Positions 5,174 to 64,000 of a DNA stretch of 64,000 nt are shown here, in pieces (position 1 is the first letter of the stretch; every line of letters begins with the position of its first letter). The notes under the pieces are model-generated. The model made no database searches. It was not told the origin of the DNA and saw only the letters and a list, made by a program, of their open reading frames with translations. A program made the position numbers and the translations under genes. This DNA comes from Eledone cirrhosa (taxonomy: Eukaryota): NCBI GenBank assembly GCA_964016885.1, contig OZ024755.1, positions 10,664,001-10,728,000 of the forward strand, written 5' to 3'.

Positions 5174-5177
<4 letters not shown>

Positions 5178-5357
5178 GTTTCTACGTTTTGCACAAGGCC
5201 TGCAATTACCCAGTGCATTACTGATACTTTATTTTATCGACCCCGTAAGGATGAAAGGCAAAGTTAACCTCGGCGGGATTTGAACTCAGAATGGCAAGGG
5301 CCGTAACTCTATGCGTCAAAGCATGGCGTCCGACTCTACCGATACTGCCAATCCACC
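5174..5357 (-). mobile_element. SINE family A, near full length
   Basis: Near-identical to 55137-55326; the 3' end abuts (TA)n. Confidence 0.9.
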
Positions 5358-9225: not shown

Positions 9226-9231
<6 letters not shown>

Positions 9232-9488
9232 AGAAATGTAAGCTATCGCCGTATTTTGACTAAAGAAATTAAAGAAATTATTTAGCCTGATAGTGGAGTT
9301 AAGAACCCCCGGAGAAATGGAAGAAGATGAGTATTGACGTCAATACTCATCTTCTTCCATTTCTCCGAGGGTTCTTAACTCCACTATCAGACTAAATAAT
9401 TTCTTTAATTTCTTTAGTCAAACTACGGCGATAGCTTACATTTCTAATAATTTGAAATCAACTCGCTGTTTCGAAAATATTCTTACTT

Positions 9489-9492
<4 letters not shown>
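9226..9492 (+). mobile_element. Palindromic insertion in (TA)n: 113-bp arms, no spacer, plus ~41-nt tail
   Basis: 9226-9338 is the reverse complement of 9339-9451 (3 mismatches, centre TGACGTCA). Tail 9452-9492; (TA)n on both sides. Confidence 0.8.
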
Positions 9493-9525
<33 letters not shown>

Positions 9526-9528
<3 letters not shown>

Positions 9529-9708
9529 ATTAAATAAATGGAAACTATATTTATAAAACCATATTTATTTCGTTATATATATTTCAGGGATATCATATTA
9601 ACAATATGTTATGCCTTCTTCAGACAAAATACAATATAAACAGTCTTATAAATAAATAGATACGACATACCTTTCAATCACCTTGCATTTGGGAGGTTGA
9701 TTTGGCAG
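9526..9708 (-). mobile_element. Penelope-like pseudo-LTR fragment, same family as 25213-25659
   Basis: Highly similar to the left arm 25216-25398 and starts at the same boundary (gatattaaataaatgg) next to (TA)n. Confidence 0.8.
9566..9631 (-). ncRNA. Type I hammerhead ribozyme (minimal stem III)
   Basis: Minus strand: UAUUUUGU-CUGAAGA-AGG..CAUAUU GUU AAUAUG..CCU-GAAA-UAUAUA-UA-ACGAAAUA. Stem I is 8 bp, with G-C where the 25467 copy has G-U. Confidence 0.8.
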
Positions 9709-10384
9709 TAAAAAAAAAAAATATATATATATATATATATTTATGTATGTGTGTGTGTATATATGTATATATATATATATATTATCATTATTATTATTGT
9801 GAAGGTACATGGCTTAGTTGGGCTTGCAACCATGAAGTTGTGAGTTCGATTCTCGGTCCTAGTGCGTTGTGTCCTTGAGCAAGACACTTTATTTCACATT
9901 GCTCCAGGTCATGAATTTTATTTAACGCAGAGAAAGCTATGTTATGTAATATATTTATCGTTGTATGAAACACACTCACGAATATGTACAATATATGTCT
10001 ATGTGAGTATATTTCTGTGTGTGTGTGTGTGTGTGTGTGTGCATGAGTGCGTGTATGAACGTGTATGTGTGTATTTCTCATTGCAGATGCCTGGCGTAGT
10101 CTTCTTGCAGCTTAAGTGTCATAACTTTATACATTTTATGAAATAACTGGCAATTGATATATTATCACACATATATTGGCGTATATATTTATAAAGAAAT
10201 TGTAGATTTATGTGAGCAAATAAGATACTAAGCGACATACAGACAGGCCAACACACCAAGAGAGAAATGTTATTGTTATATATATATATATATATATTAT
10301 GTATATATATATATATACATATACACACACATATGTAGAATATATATATATATATATTCTATGTAAATATATATATATATATAT

Positions 10385-10577
10385 ATAGGAAAAAGTATGA
10401 CCACGACGGCAGAGCTCAAGCCGTTTCGACGGTTATTTCTGTCCAGAAATAGCCGTCGAAACGGCTTGAGCTCTGCCGCCGGGGTCATACTTTTTCCTAT
10501 TTCCCACTCTGCTACCCTAAGTATTGAGTACTCTGGTGCGTTATGGTCCATCTGGTTCCTTACCACAATTCCTTCGT
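10385..10577 (+). mobile_element. Palindromic hammerhead-derived element in (TA)n: 57-bp arms plus 77-nt tail
   Basis: 10385-10441 is the reverse complement of 10444-10500 (3 mismatches). The tail starts with cactc...gagta. Same family as 42460-42655. Confidence 0.85.
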
Positions 10578-11070: not shown

Positions 11071-11720
11071 ATCCAGCTGCTTCTGGATAGGAAATGCATT
11101 GTCATACCTTGAATCGACAACCGTGTGTATAGATGTAAAGTCACTTTATCATTATATCAGTATATACACACACGTGTATATATATATATATGCGTGTGTG
11201 TGTGAATGTAAATATATACATAGGGTGTCACTCCAAATGTATACACACTTTTATTTAAATGCTGTATGCAAGTGTGTATACATTTTGTGCGACACCCTGT
11301 ATAAATACATTCTAGATACCAGATGAGAGAGAGAAAAAGATAGATAGGACGATACAATCACCTTTATCTTCATTTCGCATAGACTGCCACTTAGCACGAT
11401 TAATTTTTTCCATGTGTATGCGTGTACACACACACATTTATTTATCTATCTATATATATATATATATATGTAACTTCAGATATTCATTTCTTATCTTCCT
11501 GATGTCTTGCGGTGGAAAGATACATATATCATATTTATGAGGAAAAAGAATTTCCACGGTGAAAAGAGATACGGCGAGGGGAGATAATTAATAATAAAAG
11601 TACAAGATACAAACTATACAAAGAAATTCATATATATGCTTATTTGCGTATATATATCAAATAAATGAAATATATATATATATAATACATACTAAATAAA
11701 TGAAATATATATGTGTGTGT

Positions 11721-12350: not shown

Positions 12351-12430
12351 TTTAATTTTGTCTGACGAACGAGCTGGACGTTTATGTAAGAATCGTCTAG
12401 TTTCTCGAAACCTTCGGTAATGGTATAATT
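12351..12430 (+). ncRNA. Probable type I hammerhead ribozyme, slightly degenerate
   Basis: UUUUGU-CUGACGA-AC-GAGCUGGACG..CGUCUAGUUU-CUC-GAAA-CC UUC GG-UA-AUGG. Long stem II, short stem III and a GUA triplet; stem I is weak and the base of stem II is imperfect. Adjacent to (TA)n. Confidence 0.55.
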
Positions 12431-15432: not shown

Positions 15433-16071
15433 TGCAATGTTTTCGTATTCATATATCTATAGATGAGTCATTGATTTTAACTGATCGCCACGATAACCTT
15501 ACTAAGATATATCTTCACATTATATACACATTCAGTGTTATTGGTAGTTACGATTTACGCTTCTTTGTGTCTACTTCTTGCTGTTATGTATCAGCTTCGT
15601 TCAAGACTTTTCACATCACCAAATCAGTGTTAGAAGAAATAAGATGACACAACTCATTAAGAAATTGTATATCAATTGCATATTCATCATGCCTAGATCT
15701 AGTGTACATCTCTCTCACTCTCCTCCTCTTATTTTATTTATTTCTCTCTCTCTCCTTCAGCCTATATATATATTATACACACGCGCGCGCGCACACGCAC
15801 TTTAAATGACAGGTCAATATAAAATTAGTGTGTGTTCATTTGCTTGAAACTTTTACTAGATCTAATTAGTCCTAAATATGAACAAAGACGACAGTCAATT
15901 GATTTGGTTAAATACCGAACTAAACGTAAAATGACGAGGTTACTGACCTATTATCAACGCTGCATTTTCCCCGTGGCGAAGACTTTTAATACTCCACAGC
16001 ATTGAGATGGGTTATTAACATGGTTGCTTTAATTCATTACAGTAGGCTAAAATATCGGCATGAGATTAAAT

Positions 16072-16258
16072 AATTGATTCTACTTTAGGCACAAGGCCAG
16101 CAATTACCCAGTGCGTTACTGGTACTCTATTTTATCGACCCCCGTAAGGATGAAAGGCAAAGTCAACCTCGGCGGGATTTGAACTCAGATCGTAAAGGGA
16201 CGTAACTATGCTGGAAAGTATGGCGTCCGACACTACCGATACTGCCAATCCACCGCCC
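16072..16258 (-). mobile_element. SINE family A, full length, TSD TGAGATTAAATAAT
   Basis: Full family sequence. TSD at 16061-16074 and 16259-16272, and the right copy is additionally duplicated in tandem. Confidence 0.92.
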
Positions 16259-17751
16259 TGAGATTAAATAATGAGATTAAATAATGTTTGCGTATCGATT
16301 TAAAGTATTATTCCTTCCATATGAAAAGTTAAACTACATAAGTAGTGAATTAGGGTGGGGATAGTTGGGTTGTATACGGAGGACGTACATCATATGAGTC
16401 AACGGAAACTGTGCAGAAGGACTTCATGTATTTATATGTATATGTGTGTTTGTCAGTGTAGGCTTAGTGTTTGTTTGTGTCCAGTAATTGTTTGATTTAT
16501 CAATCGATGAAAAAGCGCCTGAATTGGAGAAAAAACAAGTTGGAGGTCTATGTGGTTGACTAAATCTCTTCAGGGTGGGGGTCACAGAATGACCGCAGTC
16601 TGATAACTGAAACCAGTAAAAGAATAAAAGGATAAATAATTCAGTTAATTTATTTGAACCTTCATACTTGAAAACATCAATCATTGAATCGCTTCTTTGA
16701 TATCATTAGCCTACTTCTAGCGAACGTGGTCTCACCTATTTTCATTGTTGACAGATCTACAGGAAAACTGAAACTAGTAGAATGTGTAGCCAATGAATTA
16801 CATTCGAAATACACACAGTGGACTTTAGTTCCTTACCTATGAGATTTCATGCGAATACCTTATTCACATGAGACGGGCCAAGTCGACATAATGTGTTTAT
16901 TCAATATAACTTATCTTGGTATAATGTAATCGACATAGTTGTACATATTTTTTTGTATTTATCAAACACGTAACTTCTTTTCTCCAATGAACAAGAACGA
17001 CATAAATTCTTATTATTGTATGTGGATATAGCTAAACTGGTAAGTTTCGTTTCTGCAATCGATACGTTAATTTGTAATCAATCCAAGGATTATATTTGAA
17101 ATCACCTACATATCAAATCGATATCTACAGTTTTTTGCCGTTGGTCAATCGAATCGTACAGAAAAAAGCCACCTTGGATCATGACTGGCCATGAGTTTTA
17201 TTTTCCGTGGTACAAGCTTGAGCAAGAATGTTTTGTGAAGACTATCAGTCACCCATACATGCCAATAACCACTATCCACGTCCCCCATGTCTCCAAGACC
17301 AACGCCACCACAACCAATTTCTTTTTCTAGCTGAAGAGACTGGTAAAACGAAAAATAAAATTTCTAGATCAAAAACACAATGTCCGACACCACCCCACCT
17401 CATCCGCCCGCCAAGAAATCGAAGTTGTGGTCTTTCTAATAAACCCTAACCACTGAACCACACTTTTCACATAGATCAGACCACTTAGAACTCACAAAGA
17501 CGTGGCATATATCCACGCTCCTATCGTTGACATGGGAAAGATTATTTTATAGATTCGTTTATATTTACTGGATTTATAGAAAGAGTAAATCTTTTATTTT
17601 GATATGATTTACGGCGATGTAGATAATGTATTGATATATCTTGAGAACCATAATATATCTGATAGTTTTACTACTGGCAATATATACTCTACAATAATCC
17701 TCTGGCGGATGCGTCTAAATTATCCTTCAAACTATATTTTATCTGTAAATA

Positions 17752-18200: not shown

Positions 18201-18679
18201 ATGAGACTCCATTTGCTCACCATACAGAGAGATGGGGAGGGCGAAAAAGATGGAGTCGATTACAGTGGGAGTTCGGCTCTTCCATGTTACTTGTGGTTGT
18301 GCTCATTATCTATAGAGTTCCTTCTATTATTCAGCTGCTTTAATATGACTGAATTTTCGATTTAACTCCTGGTTCTCACAACTATACGCACACACAACTT
18401 ATAAATGGGGATTACCATTAATATACACAGGTACACACAGATACCCACGCGCATTCACATACCCGCATACCAACAGACGCATACAATCACACAGGAAACT
18501 AGAATCACACAGACAGACACAGAGAGAGAGACTCTCTCCAAAACAAAATGATACACCCATAGGTACACATACACAATTACAAATACACCCACTTCTTAAT
18601 AGCCACATACAGAGATATATCCTGTCATTTGGGTGGTAAGAGATTCAAAAGCAATATTGTCACAGTTCATTATTATAAG

Positions 18680-18841
18680 GGGGTCGGACGCCATGCTTTG
18701 ACGCATTGAGTTACGGCCCTTGCCATTCTGAGTTCAAATCCCGCCGAGGTTAACTTTGCCTTTCATCCTTACGGGGTCGATAAAATAAGTACCAGTAATG
18801 TACTGATTATTGCTGGCCTTGTGCCAAAAGTAGAAACAATT
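18680..18841 (+). mobile_element. SINE family A, 5'-truncated, TSD ATTATTATAA
   Basis: Family sequence; attattataa at 18669-18678 and 18839-18848. Confidence 0.9.
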
Positions 18842-20970
18842 ATTATAATCTCAATTATACTACACACAGTAGCGAGATTAGTGAGTTGGTTTATGCCTGT
18901 TATTTGGCGATGTTTTCTGTTTTCGTTGTTATCGCCGTGGTTGTCAATGGTTGTTGGTTTTGTAGTTGTTGCTGTAGTTGTTGTCTTCGTTGTGGTATTT
19001 ATTCTGCTTCATCTTTATTCCATATAAATTATTTCTTTTGTTAGTGAAGCTTTAAGAGTTATGAAGTAAATTATAGAATCGCAACACGGTAGGCAATGAA
19101 TGACAGGGCGTAGAAGAAAGCAAGTAATGAAGCTCCGTCTAAAAACACACAATCATAATGTTTCATAATTCTTTCTTCTCATGAGGATTTTCTTTATATC
19201 ATTAATTCTTCTCCACTTTATAATTCTAAATCATTTTTTATCTTTTTATCTTGAATCGACCGTAGTCTCTAATTGGATTTGTTACTACTACCACTACCAG
19301 CACCACTATTACTACTACCAGCACCACCACTTCTACAACTACTACTACTACCGCCACTACTACTACCACTACTATTATATTTAGTGGTAAGTTTTCTTTT
19401 AGCACAGCTAACTATAACAGCACTGTGTATCTGCATGTTCTGTTATTTGGCAATCGTCATTTGGATATCTACGTGTGACATTACGAAAACCTTAGGTATG
19501 CTTATGGGAAGAAACGAAAATTGAAATTTACAGCGCACCTATATGAAAGCAACGTGGAAGTATGAAACATTTTACTCAAGAAACCAACCCGCCGCCTGGG
19601 TTAATCATCAAACCAATGACCTCGTGATCGTGTAGCCAATTCTCTATCCACTAGTCAATACACCTTCACCGAATGAGAAGAAAATTGTATGTTGGATAGA
19701 AAATAGACAGAGAAATAATTTGTGAAAATGATGTTTCGTAATAAATTGAAAAGAGAAAATAAGTTTCTTTTTCATACACCAGCAGATTCGCTGACATTTT
19801 CCGACTGAATCACTTAACGGAAATTTTCTTCGAACTAAGAAATTTCCATTAATTAAACTTGTATGTAGCATTCAGTACACCTCTTTGTAACTTGTTTACT
19901 CGAATCCACGTCATTGACATCTTTGAAGTATTTTACTTAGCTCCACTTATTTTGTAATTATGCAAATTATGCTGGCAAAATATTATTAGTACATATTATC
20001 TTTTTGCAGATAAGATGTAAGGTAATCTTTGTATTTTGACGTCACTTTCTGAGTGGGTCTTTTATTCGAGTGGGTCTTTTATTATATAAGCTGTTCACGT
20101 GAGTCTAATACATGCAATATTTCATTCTTACAACATTCACAAGATATAAAACTTCTCAGGAGTTCTCTATGATAAATGCAAAATTTGTCGAAGCTGTATT
20201 CACTGAAAACATTGAAACTGTGGAACATATAAATATGTCAATATTCAATAATAGACCCCCAATTTTAAGGTTGCAGGTTCTATTATAGAGCAACCTAGCG
20301 TGGTGTATTCTTGAGCAAGATCCTTCATTTTTGCTTGCTTTTTCAAGTTACTATTAGGGCACCTATCATTTAAACACTCGAGAAACATTCTGTGAGATGC
20401 TGCGTCAGTGAAACTTTCACAGGTGTTAGCTGTAAATTTCGTTGTTTATTCTTTTTGAAAAGGACTCTATAATTTCTGAATTCTATCTGCAATTTCCTCA
20501 AGATTTGTATTCACGTTCAACTTATAATCGACAAAACTAAATAATGCAATGTCAATATTTTAAATGTCATGTCGTTCCGTAGCATCATTCTAGAAAACCA
20601 AACAATGCTAGGACTCGCATATCCAACAAGCAAAGGACCATAAACGATTCTCTTCAATAAAATTAACTGGGGGATATACATTAGAGCTGAACATTATTAC
20701 AATGAAAGAACATCACAAGCTTTTGTGGGCTGCATCATGCTGTTACTGTTGGCCACCTCCACTATGAATCAATCAAACAGTGACCATAAAAATAGGAAAC
20801 CAACCAACAGATTCCAACCCCCACTAAGAGGCTAAATACTGAATCAGGAGCAGGAAACTACCGCGTATATATTGGCTAACCAATTCTTTGCAGAAAGAAA
20901 ACGAAGCAAAATGTAACACAGTCGCAATTCAAGAGAACGGGGAAAAAACAACTACTTCAAGCTACTCCAG

Positions 20971-23700: not shown

Positions 23701-25255
23701 AATAGATTTGTACATTTAACGTACATCAGAGTATGTTGTTCCTTTTTTCTTATATAATTACTTTCTGCTTACCACCTATACATGGACACTTATCAATTGA
23801 TGGAGCCCTACGTGATATGGGGTGTCTTGTGCATTATAATGAAGACAAAAGGAGTGGACGGACGTCAGGTTTGAAGGGCTTGAAAAGATTTGTAATGTTA
23901 CAGCAGGTAGTTTATTGGTTTGGGTGTTAAACTTAGTTTAATTCCTTCGAGTCGCGCATTGTGTTCTTTTACGAAATACTTTTTGGCGTAGCTCTTTCTG
24001 TTAGGAGCTGCGACCGGCTGATAGTGTCAGCAATAGAAAGACCAATAGAAAAAGAGATTGGTCCTATATCATGATCGACTTCTTTTTTTTCTGCGTTTTC
24101 CTTTTTTCCTTCAGCGTCTATGGTTTTATTTTAATGAAAATGATCAAAATTCAAAGACACACAATCAGTGAGACAGCGATAGGTAGAAAGAATCTTTGTT
24201 TGAAGGAAAGATAGTGCATATGTAGTTAAAACAATATAAAACGTTGGAGGGCTGTGAACTCTACGTAAAGATTTGAGATGCTTTAGATGGCTTCAGCATC
24301 AAATTAAATTTCTTGGTTTGGGTTTTAATAACGACACAATCTCCTAACTTAACGCATTTCTTATCTATATTTCATGTAACGATGGCTACACATTTCATCA
24401 GGTCGTTTACCTTCATCTGTGTAAACGGCTGACTCTCTATCTGGAGTCACCATCACCAACCAACACACTACGTCACTGTAAATACGCTGCCATCGCTGCT
24501 ATGACTCCTGCTTTTGTTGATGATGATGGTGATGCAGTAGATAAATTGTCAATAAATGGGGTGAAGAAAATTCGATAGAGATGTTAGGATCACGAAGAAG
24601 AAATGAGAGAAAATGTAAACAGAGGGGTGGATGAAGAGGGGTCGGGAAGGTGTGAAAAGAGAGGAGGGTGTGGATGGAATTGCAGAATTTAAATGCTACG
24701 TAAAAAGTAGAAATGAAGAGGATAATAAGGAGGGTGGATAGAAATATGTAAACTAAGGGGAGGAAAGAAAGCAATAGAGGATAATATATCAAGAGGAATT
24801 AGATAAGTGATAGAATATAAAACAAAGAAAGGATAGAAGAATTGGAATAAAGAAAGTGAGAGGAAGCAACTTACGATGAACGAATGAGAGGAGGGGGAAG
24901 GAGAACGTAACATGTGAATATTTGGAGGAGGAGACGACTTAGAATGCGAGAAGGAAAGCCAAGACATGGACGCTAAAAGATAAAGAGGTTTAGAGTAGAT
25001 TGGAGAAGAGACACAAGAGACTTGCTTAAGGAAATTAAATGATTGATAACAGTAAACAAGTGAAGGGTAATATATATAGACATTGAGAATGTGTGGGTGT
25101 GGGTGTGTGAGTGTGTGTGTGATTTATTTAATTTGTGCATATTTTTATATTTGTATTCCATACATCATACACACATATATGTACACATGCTTTAAATATA
25201 TATATATATATATACGATATTAAATAAATGGAAACTATATTTATAAAACCATATT

Positions 25256-25321
25256 TATTTCATTATATATATTTCAGGGATATCATATTAACAATATGCT
25301 ATGCCTTCCTCAGACAAAATA
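25256..25321 (-). ncRNA. Type I hammerhead ribozyme (inverted arm copy)
   Basis: Reverse complement of 25467-25532. Confidence 0.8.
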
Positions 25322-25466
25322 CAATATAAACAGTTTTATAAATAAATAGATTTGACATACCGTACAACATCGACTTGTATTTGAAAAGTTGAATTGGCAC
25401 TTTTCAAATACAAGTCGATGTTGTACGGTATGTCAAATCTATTTATCTATAAAACTGTTTATATTG

Positions 25467-25532
25467 TATTTTGTCTGAGGAAGGCATAGCATATTGTTAA
25501 TATGATATCCCTGAAATATATATAATGAAATA
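25467..25532 (+). ncRNA. Type I hammerhead ribozyme (minimal, self-complementary stem III region)
   Basis: UAUUUUGU-CUGAGGA-AGG..CAUAUU GUU AAUAUG..CCU-GAAA-UAUAUA-UA-AUGAAAUA. Stem I UAUUUUGU/AUGAAAUA; the core is intact. Confidence 0.82.
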
Positions 25533-25654
25533 AATATGGTTTTATAAATATAGTTTCCATTTATTTAATATCGTAAATATACTCCAAATACTTGTCGAGT
25601 GCTTTTATATCAGTTATAAATATTTACTAGTTGTAACCCAACAATTTAAATATA

Positions 25655-25685
<31 letters not shown>

Positions 25686-26325: not shown

Positions 26326-26474
26326 GATAATGATAGTGTTAATGGTGATTGATGATCATGGTGATGGCTTTGTTGATCATAATGGTGGTGGTTATGGTTA
26401 TGGTGCTGATGATGTTAACTGCAGTGCTAATTGGGGGGAATATGAATAAAATGTTAGTGCAAGATTGTGCTGAT

Positions 26475-26673
26475 AATTGTTTCTACTTTAGGCACAAGGC
26501 CAGCAATTTGAAGGGATCGATCAAATGTATAACTGGGCTTTAATTCATCAACCTCATAAGGATGAAAGGCAAAGCTAACCTCAGCAGGATTTGAACTCAG
26601 AACGTAATATGTCGTAACTCTATGCTGTAAAACATGTTGTCCGAGGCTCTACTGATTCTGCCAGTCCACCGCC
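26475..26673 (-). mobile_element. SINE family A variant
   Basis: Family termini and core; flanked by tgctgataat on both sides. Confidence 0.85.
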
Positions 26674-26688
26674 CGTGTTGCTGATAAT

Positions 26689-26872
26689 AATTGTTTCAAC
26701 TTTTGGCACAAGGCCAGCAATTAACCTAGTGTATTACTGGTATTACTGGTACTTTATTTTATCGACCCCCATAAGGATGAAAGTCAAAGTTAACCTCGGT
26801 GGCATATGAACTCGGATCATAAAGGGCTGTAACTCTATGCTACAAAGCATGGCGTCTGACCCTCTACTGATA
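26689..26872 (-). mobile_element. SINE family A, adjacent to the previous copy
   Basis: Family sequence with an internal duplication of gtattactg. Confidence 0.85.
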
Positions 26873-27344
26873 CTGATAATTGATGGCTTTCTATCATTTC
26901 AGGGTATTTTTAACATTTTTTTTTTTTTTTACCCTTCTATCGATCTTGGGTTTGTTGGTGGTATTTTGTTTGTACTTATTTCTCTCCTCCTCCCCCTTGT
27001 TCTCTTTCTCCTTCTTTGCTTAATTCTCTTTCACGTCCTCCTCCTTTTTCTCCTTCTTCTTCTCCTTCTTCTCGTTTATCATTTTTTAGTTGTTTTGTCT
27101 TCCTCCCTATACTCTTCATATTTATCTTCATTATCACCACCCTACTTGTCACCATAATCTTTATCATCACTATCCCCATCATCAGCATCCATCAACGCCA
27201 TCTCTACCTCCTCATTTCACCACAATCGTCCTACTCCTACTCATGTACTTCCCTCGTGGACATGTCTTCATATCGGTTATGCTTTGGATCTCATCTTTTC
27301 ATATTTACTTTTACTATTCTCAAAATGAATCTTCGTATATACGC

Positions 27345-27830: not shown

Positions 27831-28170
27831 TGCGAGCGTGTTTGTGTTCATGTGAGTGTGTTTTCTTTTTATGTTAGTCGTTTGGGCTTTATTTTTCACC
27901 AATTCCATTCCTGCAACATAAAAAAAATATGTATCAACGAACCATCAATTAGATCTCATAAAGATTAATAATATAAGAGACACTATGGCTTCTATCGGCT
28001 ACACATTTCTTCATCATCAACACTAACATTTTCATTGTAAATATCATCACCTTTATCTGTGTCTACATTATCATCATCATCATCATTATCGTCACCACCA
28101 TCATCATCATTGTCATCATCATTGTCCTCATTATTACGATCAAAATAATGTTCATTATCATTTTCAACAA

Positions 28171-28357
28171 GGGCGGTGAATTGGCAGTATCGGTAGAGGG
28201 TCAGACGCCATGCTTTCCAGCATAGTTACGTCCCTTTACGGTCTGAGTTCAAATCTCGTCGAGGTTAATTTTGCCTTTCATCCTTACCAGGTCGATAAAA
28301 TAAAGTACCAGTTATGAACTGGATAATTGCTGGCCTTGTGCCAAAAGTAGAAACAAT
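28171..28357 (+). mobile_element. SINE family A, full length, TSD ATTATCATTTTCAACA
   Basis: Full family sequence; TSD at about 28154-28169 and 28356-28371. Confidence 0.92.
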
Positions 28358-28575
28358 TATCATTTTCAACATTGTGTTATCCCTTATCTTCATCAACAAC
28401 CTTTTGACTATATTAACATCTTCATTATCACTAATATCATCAACATCGTCTGCAACAACAGCAGTAGCAGCAGCAATAGCAACTTTATCAGCAGAAACAG
28501 CAATAGTAATAGTAGCAATGTCAACAGTAACAGTAAAACTATCATTAATGTTGGGTCATTATGTGCCAGTATCTT

Positions 28576-28764
28576 GGGCGGTGGATTGGCAGTATCGGTA
28601 GAGGGTCGGGCGCCATGCTTTGAAGCATAGAGTTACCTCCCTTTATGATCTGAGTTCAAATCCCGCCGAGGTTAACTTTGCCTTTCATCCTTACGGGGTC
28701 GATAAAATAAAGTACCAGTAATACACTGGTAATTGATGGCCTTGTGCTAAAAGTAGAAACAATT
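28576..28764 (+). mobile_element. SINE family A, full length, 18-bp TSD ATTATGTGCCAGTATCTT
   Basis: TSD at 28558-28575 and 28762-28779; A box tggcagtatcgg and B box gttcaaatccc. Confidence 0.95.
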
Positions 28765-29029
28765 ATGTGCCAGTATCTTACCTTTTTTTCTAATGTTGTG
28801 AATTGGCAGATGTTAGAACGTCGGACGGGATGATTCGTCATATTCGCTCCAGCTTGTTGGACTGTCTATTCGAATCCTGCCGATATCTACTTCGTCTCTC
28901 AGTATAAAATTTGAAAGTATACGAGTCAAATACTGGGATCGATCCTTCGCACTCACACAATCACACACACACTCTCTTTCTCTCTTTCTCTCTCTCTCTC
29001 TTTCTCTCGATATATATATATATATATAT

Positions 29030-32353: not shown

Positions 32354-32442
32354 ATTATTATTATTGCTTTTTCTTTTCCGGCAGTAGTGTTTCTGATATA
32401 TGCCAAGTGTCATCCTGACACCTATTATTACTATTATTATTA

Positions 32443-32630
32443 GGGCGGTGGATTGGCAGTATCGGTAGAGGGTCGGACGCCATGCTTTGCAGCATAGTTA
32501 CGTCCCTTTACGGACTGAGTTCAAATCCCGCCGAGGTTAACTTTGCCTTTCATCCTTACGGGGTCGATAAAATAAAGTACCAGTAATGCACTGGGTAATT
32601 GCTGGCCTTGTGCCTAAAGTAGAAACAATT
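32443..32630 (+). mobile_element. SINE family A, full length, TSD ATTATTACTATTATTATTA
   Basis: Full family sequence with tRNA A/B boxes; TSD on both sides. Confidence 0.93.
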
Positions 32631-33951
32631 ATTACTATTATTATTATTATTTTGATTATGATTGTTATTCTTACTTCGTTGTCTTCTGCTGCTCATGAGG
32701 ATGATGATGATGATCATGAAGTTGTTTCTATTTTGTGGTTGTCAGTTCAAGTGTCATATAATCCACTACCAGATTGTGACTGTATAAACAATGAAATAGA
32801 CGTAGTCGTCTACTTCGGCTTAAATTGTCCTGTCTTCCGGAAGACACAATTGAAGCAAAACGCCATCATTTCACAATTATCACTGTTATACAACGTACCT
32901 ATAAATATTACTGTCGTTCATCAATCTTCACTACAACCATATAGTCGACAATATCTGTTCAACTGCGTAGTTTCGGGTTGGATCCTAGTGATTCAAACCT
33001 AGCGAGTTTTTTTTTTTTCTATCATAATCATGAGTTTTCCAGAATATAAAAGAAATTTGCCATAATGAAACAACGTCGAGCCCTGTCGAGCGGTTGGTGG
33101 TATTGTTGGTGATTGTGGTGGTGGTGATGGCGGTGGAAGTTTCATGTCCTTGAGTAGTCAACATTATCCTGTTTACGAGGGTCAGCTGAAACATTCATAG
33201 CTTGACCAAGATACTATTATGGAGTAACCAAATGTGGTTCATTTCCTAACAGTCTCTGGAAAGTTTCAATGCAGTTATTAATAAGAAAAGTTAAAAATTA
33301 ATGCAAGCAAGATTTCACAGCCCTAGCATCAATTCTTCATTGTCAGCCGTACCTCGTAGTCCACTTAACTGGACCTTGTGTGTTTTTAACATTGTCCCAT
33401 CTAAGGTAAATATCCGAGCCAGGTCTATGACGTAAGAATAACTTCCTATCAGAGGCTTGAAAATTATAGTGTTATAACTGCTGTCGTTTCATCTGTCATT
33501 TAGCAGTAAAAGCATCTATAATTATGACAACCTAACACGTTATAATATACAATAATTGGTATTCCATGCGATAATAAAATTATTCTATCGCTTATCATAT
33601 TGTGCAATTCTATATATAATTCAATGAAACATTACTGTCAACACGTGAAACTAGTTACTTTCGTTTTGTTGTCCTTTATTTAAAGATAGTATAAGGTTTA
33701 CTTTCGGTAGGCGTAGAGTTACAATGTACATGGAGTGCATCTAGTTGCGAAATCTTTCTCTGAGTTTACCAGGCAAGTTTGGGGGACGAAATACGACCGG
33801 AGTTGTTAAAATCTTTAAATAGAACAATATGCTCTGGCTAACATACATGACAGGTAGCCTAGACCTCTGGAAAGGCATCATCACATATACATGCTCACAC
33901 TCCCACTCTCTCACTCACACTCTCACTCACTCACTCGCTCACCCACGCTCA

Positions 33952-38734: not shown

Positions 38735-39311
38735 TTGTTATACTTTGGGAGGGTCATGTTGCCAATAAGAAACACACGCACCAGTTGCTTTCACTTCAAT
38801 TTATTATATATTTATAAATTTATAAATTTACAAATTTACAAACTTATAAATTTCTGGTTGGTTGGTTGGTTCCACAACCAGATAGTTGTTTATATATAGT
38901 CATAGTCCTTTCGTCACACACTGTGACCTCTTCAGTGACTGGGGATTCCTTCTTTGTTTCTGTGCCTTTTGTGCCTTTCCTTTCTTCTATCCTACGCCAT
39001 TTTGTTTCTGTGTGTGTGTTGTTTGCTCAGTTTGCGCATGCGCCACATCCGGGTGTTTGTGTGTGTTTGTGTTCATTTATCTATTTGTTTATTTATTTAT
39101 TTATTTATTTATTGTTGGTTGGTTGTTTGTTCTGTGTGTGTGTGTTTTCATTTTGTCCTGTGTGTTTTCATTTTGTCCTTAATTGTAAGTTGTTTGTTTT
39201 ATGTGTGCGTGTGTTTCTTATTGGCAACATGACCCTCCCAAAGTATAACAATATCGGTTTCAACACACGATTTCAGATAAAGAATCTTGCTAAACAAATT
39301 CAGAAACGAAA
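38735..39311 (+). mobile_element. Penelope-like insertion within the satellite: long inverted segment, 47-bp inverted repeat, ~60-nt tail
   Basis: 38735-38781 is the perfect reverse complement of 39205-39251. A hammerhead and an AATAAA lie on the minus strand inside. Tail 39252-39311. Confidence 0.75.
38898..38940 (-). ncRNA. Minimal type I hammerhead ribozyme
   Basis: Minus strand: AGUCA-CUGAAGA-G-GUCACA GUG UGUGAC-GAAA-G GA C-UA-UGACU. Stem I 5 bp, stem II 6 bp (one extra G after the core), minimal stem III. Confidence 0.75.
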
Positions 39312-40282: not shown

Positions 40283-42459
40283 TTGTTACTACACTCCTGT
40301 TCGGTTGTATTGCGTCTATGTATGCATATCGGTTGATTAGTTTGTTGTCGGTGTGTGTGTGTGGTTGGTTACCTTACCTTACCTTATTTTTATTTTTATT
40401 TTTATTATTTTTGCAGGGACGAAAATCTGCTACTAAAATCGCACAGCAATTTGTCTGATATGGCGTTTTGGGGAAATGTCCATCATGTCGACCCGAAAAT
40501 TTCTATTCTATTTATTTTACTCTGCTGATATAACTAAAGATATATTTGCATATCTTATATGTTGATATATCTAAGTGATTCCGTGTGGAGGAACGAGTCA
40601 CTGTTTGTCTGTATTTGTATGTACGTGTTTGTATGTGTGTGTATATGTGTATATATATCTATAAATAATTCTCATCTGTAACAATATTATCACCATAGAA
40701 ATATTGGATATCTTCACAGCGATATCCTCCCAAGTCTTGCAACAGTAATATCATTACAATTATATTCGCATCTTTAATATAATATCTCCACTAACAATCA
40801 TGAAATCATTTATTGATATCCTTGTTATTTTTCCACTTTATTATATCTTTGGCTACGTTAAAAAGTATATGCTAACTTTAATACAACCTTCCCATTCGTA
40901 GTTTTCTTGTATATTATATTAATGGTGTTTGAAATCGGTCGCCACATTGCTGATAATTATATTTCAAAACTATAAATAATTGAATAGAGTACAGTAACCC
41001 TGGAGACGATAAAATGATATGGCATCCGAGGGAAACGTAACCGCAGACACCTTTTACTGTCTGTGTTGGGTCATTATCTGATTTATTCAACTATTATTTA
41101 GTTATCAGGTATAAATTATATTTATTTGCATTTTAGTGACGGTTTTCAAGCTTCAGACATCATCAATGCTTTGTAAGACACCCAATCTAATGAAATCATT
41201 TTTATGACACCTTCAATATTAAATACCCTCCATCAATGGGCATAAATTATTTAATATGTACAAGAATGGTTTCAAATTTAGGCACAAGGGCAGATGATAT
41301 TGCCCCACTACTTGATCAGGGGCGGTGGGAGGTTTTCTGAATGGGGGGGACGGTCAATTTAGTTGTAGTGTTTTGCTTAACTGTCATGATCAAGTATCAA
41401 CCAAGTTATAAAAAACGTTTGATATACGATAAACATAACATGTACATAAATTGTAGCGCATATACAAATAGATGTTTGTTTTGGTAATTTGGGGAGAAAA
41501 ATACAATTGTTGGGAAGGGGTGCATGACTCCCGTAACCCCCACAGTTCCACCGCCCCTGTTGATTGATACATTGTTTTATCGGCCGCAGCAGGGACGAAA
41601 ATCACATTCGACTTCGGTGTGGGATTTGAAACCAGAAAAATCTGCTACTAAAATCGCACAGCATTTTGTCTAATATAGCGTTTTGGGGAAATGTACAGTC
41701 GATCATATCGACCCGAAAATTTTACTGGTAATTTATTTCATTGATGCTGAAGGGATAAAAGACAAATTTAACCTTGTTGGGTTTTAAGATCCGAACTTAG
41801 GGCTGGAAATAAATACCAAGTATTTTGTTCAACGTCCTAATAATTCTGCTAATCCATCGTTATTTTCTATTGCATTGTAATGTCATCACGACATTGTCTT
41901 TGTTTGGAACCCAGACATCAATGTACCGTTAATTAGATACAAGAATTGCACATTAGGAATACTTTGATACCTTGTGAACTATAGATAAGTCCCTGGTGAG
42001 GTGAAGTCATACTCTATTAGATTGTTTTAAAAGGTTTCATCTCACTTGTAACATTCGTGCCCTTCAGAAGGACAAGGGAGAATATTTCATTACTCAGATT
42101 TCTGATTTGATGTGAACGCTGTTAGATCTAATTTCCTATTTATCTAAGTAATGTATGACGTAAAATGTCCGATGAACTTTAACCGTTCATAAACACACGG
42201 CTGACATGTTTATTTCTAGGGACATCATACTAATAGTTTTTATAACACGGTAGTCTGTTCAGTACATACGGAAATTGTATATACGAGACGTTACTGAGGC
42301 GAATTACTCTTACATCAAAACATTAGCTTAGCTGGTATTTAATAATCTGTTAAACCATAAATATTTATGTCTTATCAACCTCAGTTAAATAGTGTATCAA
42401 GTTTTCCCCATCCAGGTTTGAAATTCAAACTAGATATGTGCACTATATATATATATATA

Positions 42460-42655
42460 TAATAAGAACGAGTAGGACCCCGACGGCTGAGCTCAAGCCG
42501 TCTGGACGGCTAATTCTAGTCCAGAATTAGCCGTCGAAACGGCTTGAGCTCAGCCGTCGGGGTCCTACCCGTTCCTATTACCCACTCTACTACCCTAAGT
42601 ATTGAGTACTTTGGTGCGTTATGGTCCACCTGGTTCCTTACCACATTTCCTTCGT
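42460..42655 (+). mobile_element. Palindromic hammerhead-derived element in (TA)n: 58-bp arms plus 75-nt tail
   Basis: 42460-42517 is the reverse complement of 42523-42580 (4 mismatches). Contains GAAA-CGGCU-UGAGCUC-AGCCG-UC. The tail is nearly identical to 10501-10577. Confidence 0.85.
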
Positions 42656-43298
42656 TATATATATATATATAGTAACCTACTCCATTACGAGTTCAACTAC
42701 TTGTATCAAACAAACAGCCCTAATTTTACTTCCTTTTGCTAATGTACAAGAGGAACGCACGAACGTCACATAATTTAATTTCCTCGGCTTAATAAATATA
42801 TAGCATTCTTGTGTATTTACGAAATCAATATTCAGCTACATATAGACGTATCTAAATGGATTTTTAAATGGTTTTACGACTCAGAATGACTTCTGAATAT
42901 TTTATAAATATATAGATGTTCAAATCCTGTAATCACTGGATATTAAAAGCCCAATGTATGAATGAATAAACTAATTTTAAATATTACAGGTATATATCAA
43001 TCATAAATTTATCCTATCTAATTGAGCGTTTACTTAGACATATTTCTATTAAAGGGTTTTTCATTGCTACTCGTACCATCAAACATACACATAAGTGTTT
43101 TAAATTAGCACAATTGAATTCATAGATATATATTCGATCTACATGATATCTTAATTCAGATTTATGTGTTCTAAATTGAAAGATATTTAATAATCTGTGT
43201 TTAACGTTTCGATGACGACTCGAAAGATTTAGATATTTGTATGTTACAGTAACAATACGTTTTCTCGTCTGTCTTCCTTTTCCTCTCTCTCTGCTCCT

Positions 43299-50298: not shown

Positions 50299-50611
50299 AT
50301 TGGTGTTGGATGCTTAAAGCGTCCGTAAGCGGTAGGCCGTTTGACCACTCGATGCTCTTACAGAGCAGAGTATATCACATAAGAAACGGAGAATCAGTGG
50401 TGCGACGAATAAAATTTATTAGACATATTACAATCGTCTTTGGCGACCAGCTCGAGGCACGATCGATGTAATGATCGAACCTGACTCTGAAATCGCAAGG
50501 TCCTCAGGAACGTCTCGATTCTACGTAGAGTTCTGGTCGCCAGAGAAACGATTGTAATATGTCTAATAAATGATATTCGCCGCAACACTGAGTCTCCGTT
50601 TCCCGTGTGAT
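50299..50611 (-). mobile_element. Penelope-like inverted pseudo-LTR element with degenerate hammerhead and tail
   Basis: Arms 50374-50450 and 50533-50611 are inverted. The spacer has minus-strand CUGAGGA and stem I-like pairing. The minus tail starts tactctgctctgtaagagcatcgagtg and ends at (TA)n. Homologous to 6267-6520. Confidence 0.7.
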
Positions 50612-54974: not shown

Positions 54975-55136
54975 TCTTTCTATTTTTCCGTCTCCAGGGG
55001 TAAGTTATCAAATTCATTCAACTAATTCATGTATTGCTGTAGATTTTCAAATAAAAAAGCAACAGGTATAGAATTTTACAAAAGTTAACAATTAATTATT
55101 GAAGCTCAAATAAACTTTGAATTATATTCAATTTAT

Positions 55137-55326
55137 AATTGTTTCTACTTTTGGCACAAGGCCAGCAATTATCCAGTGCATTGCTGGTACTTTATTTTAT
55201 CGACCCCATAAGGATGAAAGACAAAGTTAACCTCGACGGGATTTGAACTCAGAATGGCAAGGGCCGTAACTCTATGCATCAAAGCATGGCGTCCGACCTT
55301 CTACCGATACTGCTAATCCACCGCCC
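55137..55326 (-). mobile_element. SINE family A, full length
   Basis: Full family sequence; imperfect TSD ttattcaatttataat / ttatttagtttataat. Confidence 0.92.
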
Positions 55327-56054
55327 TTATTTAGTTTATAATGATTCATTGACAGTATTAAATTTACATCCAGGGCATTGTAAAAAAATAAAAAAGAGAG
55401 ACCATGGTTGTTACTAAGCAGATAGCTATAACAATATTTGATAATTATTTAGAATAGTTTCAATGAAATGGGTTAAAATACAGTAGGAGACTGAAACTAT
55501 AACGCTAGATAGCAATAGAAGTGTTGAAACTATAAAAATAGATAACTATAATTGTTTCTGCTATAATGATAGTTGATAACCATAAATAATTGTTGAATAA
55601 AATCGCTCCAAGTTCCGCTGGAGACGACAAAACGAGGACTGCATTCACATTTTCTGTATCAACTAATATTAGAGTTACCTGCATCATAGTTATTTTTTTT
55701 TTTTTTTAAATCTTGCAATGTTTTGCAAATTAATCTAGTTAGTTTTTTCTCGTTCCTTCGAAATGTTTAATGATACGTATTATTGTACGTAAATTAAAAT
55801 GATTGTTATAAAAGCAATAGAGTATGCTATAAGTAGAAACTGTTGCTATAGCAGTCCCGTTAGCGATATTAAGATTTTGTAATCGACGCCATTCTATTTC
55901 AGCTCAATTTAATGACGCCCCTAAAATGCATAGATGTCCTTAAAATATATATGAATACCTAGAATCTTGATTAAAAATTAGCTGATTTCATATTCAAATA
56001 CAAAATAACCGCATCTATAGCAATGAAACTACATATAGATAGTTTATATGTATA

Positions 56055-61450: not shown

Positions 61451-62449
61451 CTAAATTATGTGTAACTTTGCATTACCAGCGGTACCCAGACGTAAACATA
61501 TTTCATCAGATGTATTGGAGAATATTATTTTACAAAACGTCCCATGAACTAGAAACGTGTACATCTGGAAACCGCTGGCAGTGTGAAAATAAATCATATA
61601 ATTGATACGAAAATTCTCAATTTCCATATTGTGTTGATTGCATTGTTTTTTGTTTTTTTTTTGTGTGTTTTTTTTTCATGCACGCAGAATTGCATATGTA
61701 TATGATATAGTTTCCTTTACCTATAATATTGGTTTGTAAACTAGCAGATAATATCCATGTAACTCGACAAAACCAGCCTCTATTGATATTAAATATCTAA
61801 ACGATAGGAATTGATCTAGTCTTTAAAGCCAACTTGTGAAAGCAATGGGCATGTTTCAATCTTATTACTTCTCATCAGAAATGTATATTGGGTAGTTTTG
61901 TCCTAGTTGTAAGGATAATCACACTTTGAAATGTTTCGACTCATTAGATTCCTCATGTGAAAGTACTTACTATATATGAGGTCGAGTTAATCATTATTAT
62001 ATGTATATAATCAAGGTCAAATTTGCCTATCATCCGGCCGTATATTTATGTGGTGTCCCTAAATTTCCCTCAGCAGTTATGGGATCATACATACATAGGT
62101 ACATAAACCATGCTTTAAACTTTATTTGAAACCTTAATCTAATTATGTATTGTATTAAATATCTGGCGAATTGTTTTTTTTTATTTCTTCTTTCCAAATA
62201 TATCTAATACTCCTCGAAAAAAGAGTTGCATTCTATTATATATATTTCGGAATTTATGTTTATATGTGTGTGATCTTCCTCGGACTTTAAGAGATTATTC
62301 CCACTTCTCATTACATTCTAATCATGTCCCCCCTCTTTCTTTTCTATATAGCTATTGCCACTCCATGCCCCTTCCACTGTTTTATATTACTTGTCGTTCC
62401 TTTCTCTGTCGTTTAAAGATGTGCAAGTCTTATTTCTTACGGAAGCAAT

Positions 62450-62760
62450 TCGGTTCTTTGGGACCGCAACCTGGTACAGTCTGCGACTGACCCACGTTCT
62501 GCTGCACGTCGGGCTGGGGGGGCCAAACTCCTCAAATACCGGTCGCTCTACGACAGGTTTGCGGTCGTACCCCTGGCAGTGGAGACTTCTGGTGTCCTCG
62601 GCCCCAGCGTTACCTCCTTACTCACCACCATAGGCGCTGAGCTGGCCAGCCGCAGGTGTGAGCCCCGCGAGTTCGAGTGGCTTTTCCAGCGCGTCTCCCT
62701 TGCCGTCCTCCGGGGAAACGCCTTCTCCATTCTGTCCGCCGGTGCTGTGGGTGGGCCCCA
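62450..62760 (+). pseudogene. C-terminal restriction-like endonuclease region of a CRE-like non-LTR retrotransposon (fragment)
   Basis: GC-rich island translating to AARRAG..AKLLKYRSLYDRFAVVPLAVETSGVLGPSVTSLLTTIG...WLFQRVSLAVLRGNAFSIL. This matches the K..KY..L...P.AVET.G..G...QR.S.A..RGNA signature of RLE-type (CRE clade) elements. Confidence 0.75.
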
Positions 62761-64000
62761 TCGCGTACCAATACATTAGTTAAATACCATTCTTTCATCT
62801 GTTATTATAATTGTAATGTTAATTCTTTGCTCATTTACTTAGATGAAGTTATATTCTTCGGTCATGTAAGTACATTTTTTTCTAACATCAATAAACTTAA
62901 GAACATGTTCAGTGTCCTTTTCTATGCATTCCTTTAAAACTGATATAATAATCAGCATTAAATATTTTATGTTAAAGAATATATTGTAGAAGGCCTTGAG
63001 TTCCACTTTATATATGAGACGTAAGAAAAGACAATGTTGGACGTATTCCTAAAGACAATGTTAGACGTATTCCTAATCATGTATTTTATGTAATGTGCTG
63101 GGAAATTACAAATTCGAAAATCTCTAAATATAAGAATCTTGGATAGTAACGATTGAACGCTATATATAATAGCTGAGAAATTCGAGTAACTTATCTGTAG
63201 AGACGGAGAGAATCGGCCAGAGGTGTCTCATTGACGACCCTGACTGTTAAATGACCACGACACGTCAAGACAACGCCTCTGGGGCACCATCTGGAGATAA
63301 GGACTCGCGGATTCTTTCCTAATAATCATGGTATGGTGAGGAATAAATTACGTAAATCCTGCCACAAGACTGTTAACACATTCAGCTGCATTTAAAGACA
63401 AGCTAACTAGATAATCAGAAAGGATTTATCAACATACGTAGCTGCTTATCTGTTTGAACTGAAATTAAGTGCCTCGATTAATATGGAGCGCAAGCCAATA
63501 ATATTCTTTTTTAATTATGTTGCTTCTTTTTCGGCCTTCATTTTTACTTTCTTTTCATTGCTTTTATTCACTATTTTATTTATCTTTCAATATTTTATTT
63601 TGTTTCTATTGCTTCGTGTTATATGAATTATCTTTTTTCTAAGTGTTTTACTGCTGTTGATTTTTACTAACCAATTTTTTCCCTCCTTATTTCATCGTTC
63701 ATGTTGGTCGATTTCATTTATAAATTGTTCATTTTGTATTCAATGGTCTCTGAGAATCACAAAAGGCCACATTAATTGTATAACCACAACTGGCCATAAA
63801 TACTGCTATAAAAGAATGACTGAATTGGGAAGACGATTAGTATTTCTCTCTCTTTTATACCTTAATCTTTCGATCCACTCGAATAAAAAAAAAACCCGGG
63901 TTGTTGGTGGCATTACAGTTTAATGAGTACGTAGCAGTGTATGAAGAATGGAATAGAATGAGTAATCCTTTTCAATTGTTATTTATATTGTTATAATCAC

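Follow-up and report, generated by a model that had tools for sequence, protein, structure and literature searches.

Two fold-back copies of an abundant short repeat, probably a non-coding derivative of Penelope-like elements

The window, that is the whole stretch of 64,000 nt analysed here, is AT-rich, full of microsatellites and presumably animal DNA. A BLAST search within this 64-kb window revealed two copies only of the element described below, copy A at 10385-10577 and copy B at 42462-42655. Both comprise, in the same order, a (TA)n run, an inverted arm of 56 nt, a loop of 4-5 nt, the forward arm, a one-sided tail of 77 nt and a second (TA)n run. Their features are the following, with the evidence in brackets.

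42445..42461, no strand: left (TA)n run, likely the insertion target (sequence)
42462..42517, minus strand: inverted arm of copy B, which mirrors 42523-42578 and lacks the tail; GAAA is changed to CAGA (4/56 mismatches against the right arm)
42517..42522, plus strand: fixed left (presumed 5') end of the family and fold-back apex loop AGTCC (X1 depth, joints)
42528..42564, plus strand: putative 3' half of a type I hammerhead, without CUGANGA (sequence, shuffles, variant positions)
42565..42578, plus strand: variable spacer that runs to 42578, the short family end with its (TA)n flank (loose ends past 42566 and 42578)
42579..42655, plus strand: one-sided tail of 77 nt, up to the long (TA)n-flanked family end (alignment, loose ends)
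42656..42672, no strand: right (TA)n run (sequence)
10385..10440, minus strand: inverted arm of copy A, GAAA...GUC intact (arm comparison)
10441..10577, plus strand: loop GTCC, forward arm (GCC replaces GUC) and tail of copy A; (TA)n-rich flanks (arm comparison)

Architecture and arm symmetry of the two copies

The central stem of copy B is formed by the strands GACGGCTAATTCT (42505-42517) and AGAATTAGCCGTC (42523-42535), which enclose the loop AGTCC (42518-42522). It is followed by GAAA (42536-42539), CGGCT-TGAGCTC-AGCCG (42540-42556) and TC (42557-42558). The corresponding 13-bp stem of copy A (10428-10440 / 10445-10457) encloses the loop GTCC and is also followed by GAAA; the fifth pair of its stem III is U-U in both arms. 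The first-pass annotation had put the palindrome axis at the hairpin loop in both copies, and the axis does lie there, though by construction, the hairpin being the innermost part of the 56-bp palindrome. The GAAA, the stem III with its GAGCUC loop and the GUC were located where that annotation had them, and the GCC that it reported in one arm of the copy at 10385 was found in the right arm of A. The paired half-ribozymes that it described are there only in part: GAAA...GUC is intact in two of the four arms (B right, A left), but neither copy has two intact halves, since the left arm of B carries CAGA for GAAA and the right arm of A carries GCC for GUC.

Chance can hardly account for two 56-bp palindromes with 3-4 mismatches each. 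In both window copies the inverted arm stops at the short family end (42578), which leaves the element asymmetric, a point not stressed in the first-pass annotation; the tails of A and B differ at 5 of 77 positions. Two private changes in the left arm of B, at 42502-42504, reproduce the left end of the element as a 7-nt mirror and may stem from a small template-switch event.

The alignment of the four arms comprises 56 columns, 12 of which are variable. Five of these are concordant within each copy and differ between the copies, the other seven are private to one arm, and none of the 12 pairs left arm with left arm. Arm-to-arm differences number 3 in A and 4 in B, against 7-10 between the copies, which bears out the earlier remark that the copies differ from each other while each is internally symmetric. 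All five concordant sites are common variants in the population, as seen in reads and contigs. With five concordant and no cross sites, the arms must have been copied from each other, or equalised, after the A and B lineages split. The junction loops also differ, GTCC in A against AGTCC in B, and 49 and 45 contigs show yet another letter at 42518. Snap-back priming at insertion, as had been suggested, fits both the arm concordance and the differing junctions, but priming on a native stem II is not supported as stated. The inverted arm was thus probably made by self-priming at insertion, a mechanism already proposed in print for Penelope-like elements (PLEs; PMC3846280).

An abundant family with a fixed left end

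Four of seven sequencing runs were aligned onto 42400-42720 at 80% likeness. X1 and X2 are contigs of a single sample, from which the window may itself derive; X5 consists of RAD reads with the same species label from another study, and X4 of contigs from organism B. The alignments comprise 22,903 contigs of X1, 25,121 contigs of X2, 26,247 reads of X5 and 333 contigs of organism B, and the statements made from them draw on the listed 40 of 104 variant rows, 15 of 58 joints and 24 of 732 loose-end rows. We roughly infer a family of 10^4-10^5 copies, bearing in mind that summed contig depth is not copy number. Pattern scans gave 0 matches in viral contigs and 0 in metagenome contigs; two matches in prokaryote genomes, aligned over only 21 nt, were taken as chance.

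The depth of X1 rises from 21,014 at 42513 to 66,587 at 42518, 682,008 at 42521 and about 4 million at 42540. The sequence shared by the family therefore begins at 42517-42521, and the palindrome axis coincides with its fixed left end. Among the 15 of 58 joints listed, seven have one side at 42517-42524 and connect it to 42572-42615 on the opposite strand. These are most simply inverted partners with other start points, although they may also be head-to-tail, since the reference is itself palindromic. Two X2 joints among those listed, 42668 to 42518 and 42676 to 42517, suggest head-to-tail, pLTR-like neighbours, of which the window holds none. Upstream of 42518, two long contigs continue into 35 and 40 letters of unrelated, unaligned sequence, and hence represent members without the left arm. 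The copies of organism B start near 42521-42524, with mixed sequence upstream.

The family has two right ends, 42578 and 42655, both followed by (TA)n, with an agreement of 0.48-0.80 in the loose-end consensus. The short and long ends are about equally frequent (173 vs 190 in X1, 183 vs 175 in X2, 4607 vs 3966 in X5). Such a balance would be expected were most copies palindromic, as are two of two in the window; reads and contigs that cross a B-like axis make up about 1% of contig depth and 4% of the reads uncut by the library enzyme, and hairpins may have been lost from short-read libraries. We ascribe the X5 read ends at 42525 (7186) and 42512 (74), both at AATT sites, to the library restriction cut and do not count them as element ends.

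A hammerhead-like half motif

The segment 42528-42564 comprises, in order, the putative stem II 3' strand, GAAA, stem III with GAGCTC in its loop, GUC and the stem I 3' strand. Of the parts that a hammerhead requires, GAAA, helix III and the UH triplet are present in two of the four arms; the CUGANGA box and the 5' helix strands are absent. A pattern scan of both strands found CTGANGA in neither element, and the CUGANGA half is indeed missing from both copies, as had been claimed. It is also absent from all seven upstream consensus rows listed (loose ends upstream of 42517-42528; 24 of 732 rows listed). Agreement is 0.34-0.58 in six of these rows, and the seventh, from X2, consists of (TA)n and the first letters of a subfamily. 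A type II hammerhead was rejected as well, there being no CTGANGA downstream of GUC.

The 3'-half motif was defined, post hoc, after the sequence had been seen, as CGAAA, a stem of at least 4 bp and UH. Among 5000 dinucleotide-shuffled versions of the 139-nt unit, 6 contain it by chance, and it occurs four times on the two strands of the window, twice in the A/B family. The listed variants that reach at least 3% of X1 depth in 42528-42564 fall at the edge of loop III (3) and at CpG sites (2); none of those listed for X1 falls in GAAA, GAGCTC or the six letters that follow GUC, which directly adjoin the start of the variable spacer. On this reading of the letters it is plausible that the 3' half descends from a hammerhead. 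Rfam gave no hammerhead match at the element or at 12362, where only generic hairpin families were matched, below gathering scores. In organism B, the letter before GAAA is T in 64% of the depth (671/1046), against the conserved G10.1-C11.1 pair. The ribozyme-like part is likely an inactive relic.

Folding predictions give a rival hairpin over GAAA a probability of about 0.37 against 0.62 for stem III in the long unit, and of 0.90 against 0.10 in the short unit; for solo long units, the probability of stem III is about 0.6. In the predicted fold of the whole palindromic copy B RNA (-111.9 kcal/mol), stem III is given a probability of 0.0 and full pairing extends to both the stem I strand and the C at the cleavage site, so that palindromic copies should be poor trans-cleavage substrates. 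The idea that the half motif could serve as such a substrate is therefore disfavoured for these two copies, whose predicted GUC site is fully paired. Since the 13-bp hairpin is the palindrome centre, its presence alone is uninformative about a native stem II. Against its earlier identification as the native stem II stand an axis that is the fixed left end of the family, non-palindromic members with the same start and the lack of CTGANGA in all seven listed rows, although rare longer copies may exist among the others.

The window contains further fold-backs and hammerhead-like motifs. The CTGANGA...GAAA pattern gave 8 matches in the window, with 2.0 expected in shuffles. A candidate entire minimal hammerhead lies beside (TA)n at 12352-12425 and comprises CTGACGA, a predicted long helix II, GAAA, a short helix III and UA. 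Further matches lie at 17331-17353 (plus strand), 24357-24401 (minus), 38909-38935 (minus) and 61854-61878 (minus); 38909 aside, the folds tried on them were not convincing. Two features belong to another family.

25215..25660, plus strand: different family with 175-nt arms, a 9-nt loop, a one-sided tail of about 87 nt and (TA)n on both sides (window scan)
9525..9710, minus strand: non-palindromic solo copy of the 25215 family, which starts at the axis of that palindrome (alignment)

Each arm of 25215-25660 harbors an entire minimal-hammerhead-like motif (CTGAGGA at 25475), and the axis lies 77 nt upstream of CTGANGA. The fold-back point of the 25215 family is thus again the family's fixed end, and no stem II lies at it, so that fold-back at a fixed end occurs in this genome with or without stem II. 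The copy at 9525 could form a 6-bp stem I and has a T in place of C11.1. On the strand that does not hold the motif, the fixed end of this copy bears an A11 run; in this single case, an antisense template may have left a poly(A) trace. A further fold-back at 9228-9492 has 111-nt arms without a loop, a one-sided tail of 43 nt, (TA)n on both sides and no CTGANGA.

Older, degenerate inverted repeats of about 73-74% identity, MITE-like or decayed fold-backs, are found at 50374-50611 and 11204-11312. The window also contains more than ten copies or pieces of a dispersed SINE-like repeat of about 190 nt (5175-5357, 16070-16258, 18678-18846, 26473-26875, 28170-28360, 28576-28766, 32440-32632, 55135-55330, plus fragments), which we presume to resemble octopus SINEs. 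Finally, a 120-aa frame at 62417-62779, which resembles the restriction-like endonuclease end of a non-LTR retrotransposon, had no Pfam match at E 0.01.

A Penelope-like derivation, its alternatives and related systems

Published descriptions of PLEs include a 5'-truncated copy lying inverted next to the 5' end, a tail of 30-40 bp confined to one end, a bias for (TA)n and non-autonomous derivatives (PMC8557442), and palindromes at their inverted junctions have been interpreted as self-priming (PMC3846280). In the Poseidon element of Anolis carolinensis (PAc), the tail is the stretch between two internal starts of reverse transcription, and the ORF starts at stem II. A PAc template shortened to +20, which removes the C3/G8 core, was still inserted, and ribozyme mutants did not affect insertion (PMC11167929). 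In the hammerheads of PLEs, helix II is long and loop 3 palindromic, and pairs of them on opposite strands have been reported (PMC4209133).

Several of these features are present here: an inverted arm adjoins the 5' end in two of two window copies (orientation being taken from the GAAA/GUC strand), the one-sided tail has two alternative 3' ends, and (TA)n flanks both copies. With a probability of roughly 0.6, we consider the abundant repeat of about 140 nt to be a non-coding PLE derivative that uses a borrowed RT-endonuclease and whose mirror arm is remade, insertion by insertion, at a fixed end. PLE membership is what we infer from these features and not a proven assignment, because no parent ORF was found. 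Neither the unit nor 69 low-repeat window frames searched with Pfam contain a telomerase-like RT or GIY-YIG ORF; the frames gave 3 weak matches below curated cut-offs, none to RT or GIY-YIG, and ORF absence is expected for a non-autonomous copy. A 45-codon open frame runs through the unit and has no match among longer proteins. Its three representative-protein matches, of 5-24 matched stretches each, were set aside: the two inspected are tandem repeats, and none has RT or GIY-YIG.

On the PLE reading, the RNA of the unit would be bound by a PLE protein nicking (TA)n. Reverse transcription would begin internally, at 42655 or at 42578, the intervening 77 nt becoming the tail, and synthesis would halt at 42517-42521. 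The DNA end would then re-prime on itself with 0-3 nt of pairing and recopy the unit to the short end, which would give a head-to-head palindrome with the tail on one side. The remaining copies would be joined to the target without fold-back, or re-enter further along. The GAAA / stem III / GUC block would likely be a remnant of the parent's hammerhead, maybe kept only because it lies within a protein-binding region; with CUGANGA missing, such a remnant could not self-cleave.

A rather unlikely alternative is that a longer PLE with an entire hammerhead gave rise to the copies by truncation, and that stem II itself causes the RT stop and the fold-back. The native stem II would then be TAG / 7-nt loop / YTAGCCGTC with an upstream GACGGC extension, and not the mirror-made 13-bp hairpin. 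The fixed end does lie 19 nt upstream of GAAA, the place expected of stem II, and in two subfamilies (that of B, at 42517-42529, and the one seen as loose ends before 42528) the first letters of the family could close a 7-nt loop by pairing; in the solo unit, though, the TAG/TTA pairs are predicted with a probability no higher than 0.011. A GGC that would lengthen this stem lies immediately upstream in the X5 consensus of 1591 reads before 42528 (agreement 0.74), although that consensus is perhaps dominated by few loci. Motifs with a long helix II occur elsewhere in the window (12362, 25475), and the listed variants spare GAAA, GAGCTC and the stem I strand. However, the seven listed upstream rows, with their low agreement (0.34-0.58 in six, (TA)n in the X2 row), all lack CTGANGA, organism B also starts near 42521-42524 after mixed upstream sequence, and the 25215 family combines a fixed end and fold-back with no stem II at the axis.

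We hold it improbable that the element is a non-autonomous Helitron (HLE1) on the minus strand, the fixed end being its 3' end and 42578 and 42655 alternative 5' ends. The minus strand does show a 3' end of Helitron type, with a 6-bp hairpin, a TTCG loop, 9 nt and then CTAR. The hairpin is the most stable DNA fold of that end (-6.7 kcal/mol, z -3.5), yet, barring compensation by a hidden variant, 91% of organism B depth has a mismatch in it. The end reads CTAR then T in (TA)n-flanked members, but copy A is without CTAR at its junction. The 3'-end pattern arises in 4 of 5000 shuffles and so fits about as well as the hammerhead half. At the other end, alternative left termini are known (PMC11417382), and the long end of organism B reads A then TC on the minus strand (loose-end consensus of 24 contigs), whereas neither end begins with TC in organism A. 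An inverted arm and a one-sided tail are not among the features given in the available text of PMC11417382, and the same architecture carries an entire PLE-type hammerhead motif elsewhere in the window.

Also improbable is a palindrome stably inherited as a MITE-like or fold-back element, its arms homogenised after insertion by conversion or hairpin repair. The two window copies share axis and outer end, and the short and long ends are about equally frequent, as such an element would have them. Against it, seven private arm mutations stand uncorrected and the five shared ones are common subfamily variants, the junction loops differ, and non-palindromic members and other inverted partners exist. 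The terminal inverted repeats, moreover, do not bound the element, because the tail lies outside the repeat. An ancestral fixed palindrome of the plain MITE kind, which the first-pass annotation had named as the contrary case, is disfavoured by the absence of left-with-left pairing in all 12 variable columns and by members without a left arm. A non-LTR retrozyme was dismissed, as the copies are dispersed with a half motif and are not tandem units each with an entire type I hammerhead; the definitions of the rival classes were also drawn from the retrozyme preprint (bioRxiv 10.64898/2026.07.22.740005) and PMC8969392.

Within the PLE derivation, a more specific version seems doubtful to us: a self-propagating, SINE-like PLE parasite with a natural minimal template of about 140 nt that lost CUGANGA before the A and B organisms diverged, reached 10^4-10^5 copies and has its mirror arm rebuilt at each insertion. 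If it were true, the fixed end inside stem II would document in nature the way in which the inverted ends of PLEs arise, and the parent's ribozyme might cleave solo copies in trans.

The structure is the published PLE signature, and hence reveals no new ribozyme system. What remains unusual is a very abundant family, common to a second organism, with a fixed end that cuts through the ribozyme; its residual interest is possibly that of a natural minimal PLE template with half of its ribozyme lost. The formation of PLE inverted ends and tails is still treated as open in print (PMC8557442, PMC3846280), and an abundant family with a single fixed fold-back point and two start sites offers thousands of natural junctions for tests of self-priming and of sense or antisense templates. 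Such a family would also show that the ribozyme is dispensable for spread in vivo, as it is in vitro for PAc. A literature search, with subscription journals and repeat databases outside its scope, found no paper describing the A/B family, which may already be catalogued.

The closest likeness is to endonuclease-positive PLEs (Penelope/Poseidon, Neptune, Naiad), which share the head-to-head inverted 5' copy, the junction palindrome, the one-sided tail, (TA)n flanks without discernible target duplication and a hammerhead-type motif upstream of the 3' ends (PMC8557442, PMC3846280). Unlike those elements as described there, the present one has no ORF, a unit of 62 or 139 nt, a tail of 77 instead of 30-40 nt and a 5' end that is fixed and not scattered; it lacks the CUGANGA half, and its parent was not found. 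The RNA of PAc has the same order of stem II, cleavage triplet and two RT starts that bound the tail, and its template likewise dispenses in vitro with the 5' catalytic core (PMC11167929). PAc, however, is autonomous with an ORF from stem II, whereas here the open frame is without a found relative and the start sites are deduced from the ends of copies.

The minimal type I hammerheads of metazoan PLEs resemble the half motif in the C before GAAA, the palindromic loop 3 and the UH triplet (PMC4209133). They differ in having CUGANGA and both 5' strands, and in a stem III of 1-2 bp with a loop of 2-4 nt, against 4-5 bp and 7-9 nt here. The non-autonomous HLE1 Helitrons share the minus-strand hairpin with its CTAR end and insertion among A and T (PMC11417382); the lack of a 5' TC in organism A, the inverted arm and the one-sided tail set the element apart from HLE1 as presented in that source. 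Non-LTR retrozymes (bioRxiv 10.64898/2026.07.22.740005) and Chlamys MRC1 (PMC8557442) are likewise short non-coding PLE derivatives thought to borrow PLE enzymes. Retrozymes are described as head-to-tail tandem arrays with entire ribozymes, whereas the copies in this genome are dispersed fold-backs with a half motif.
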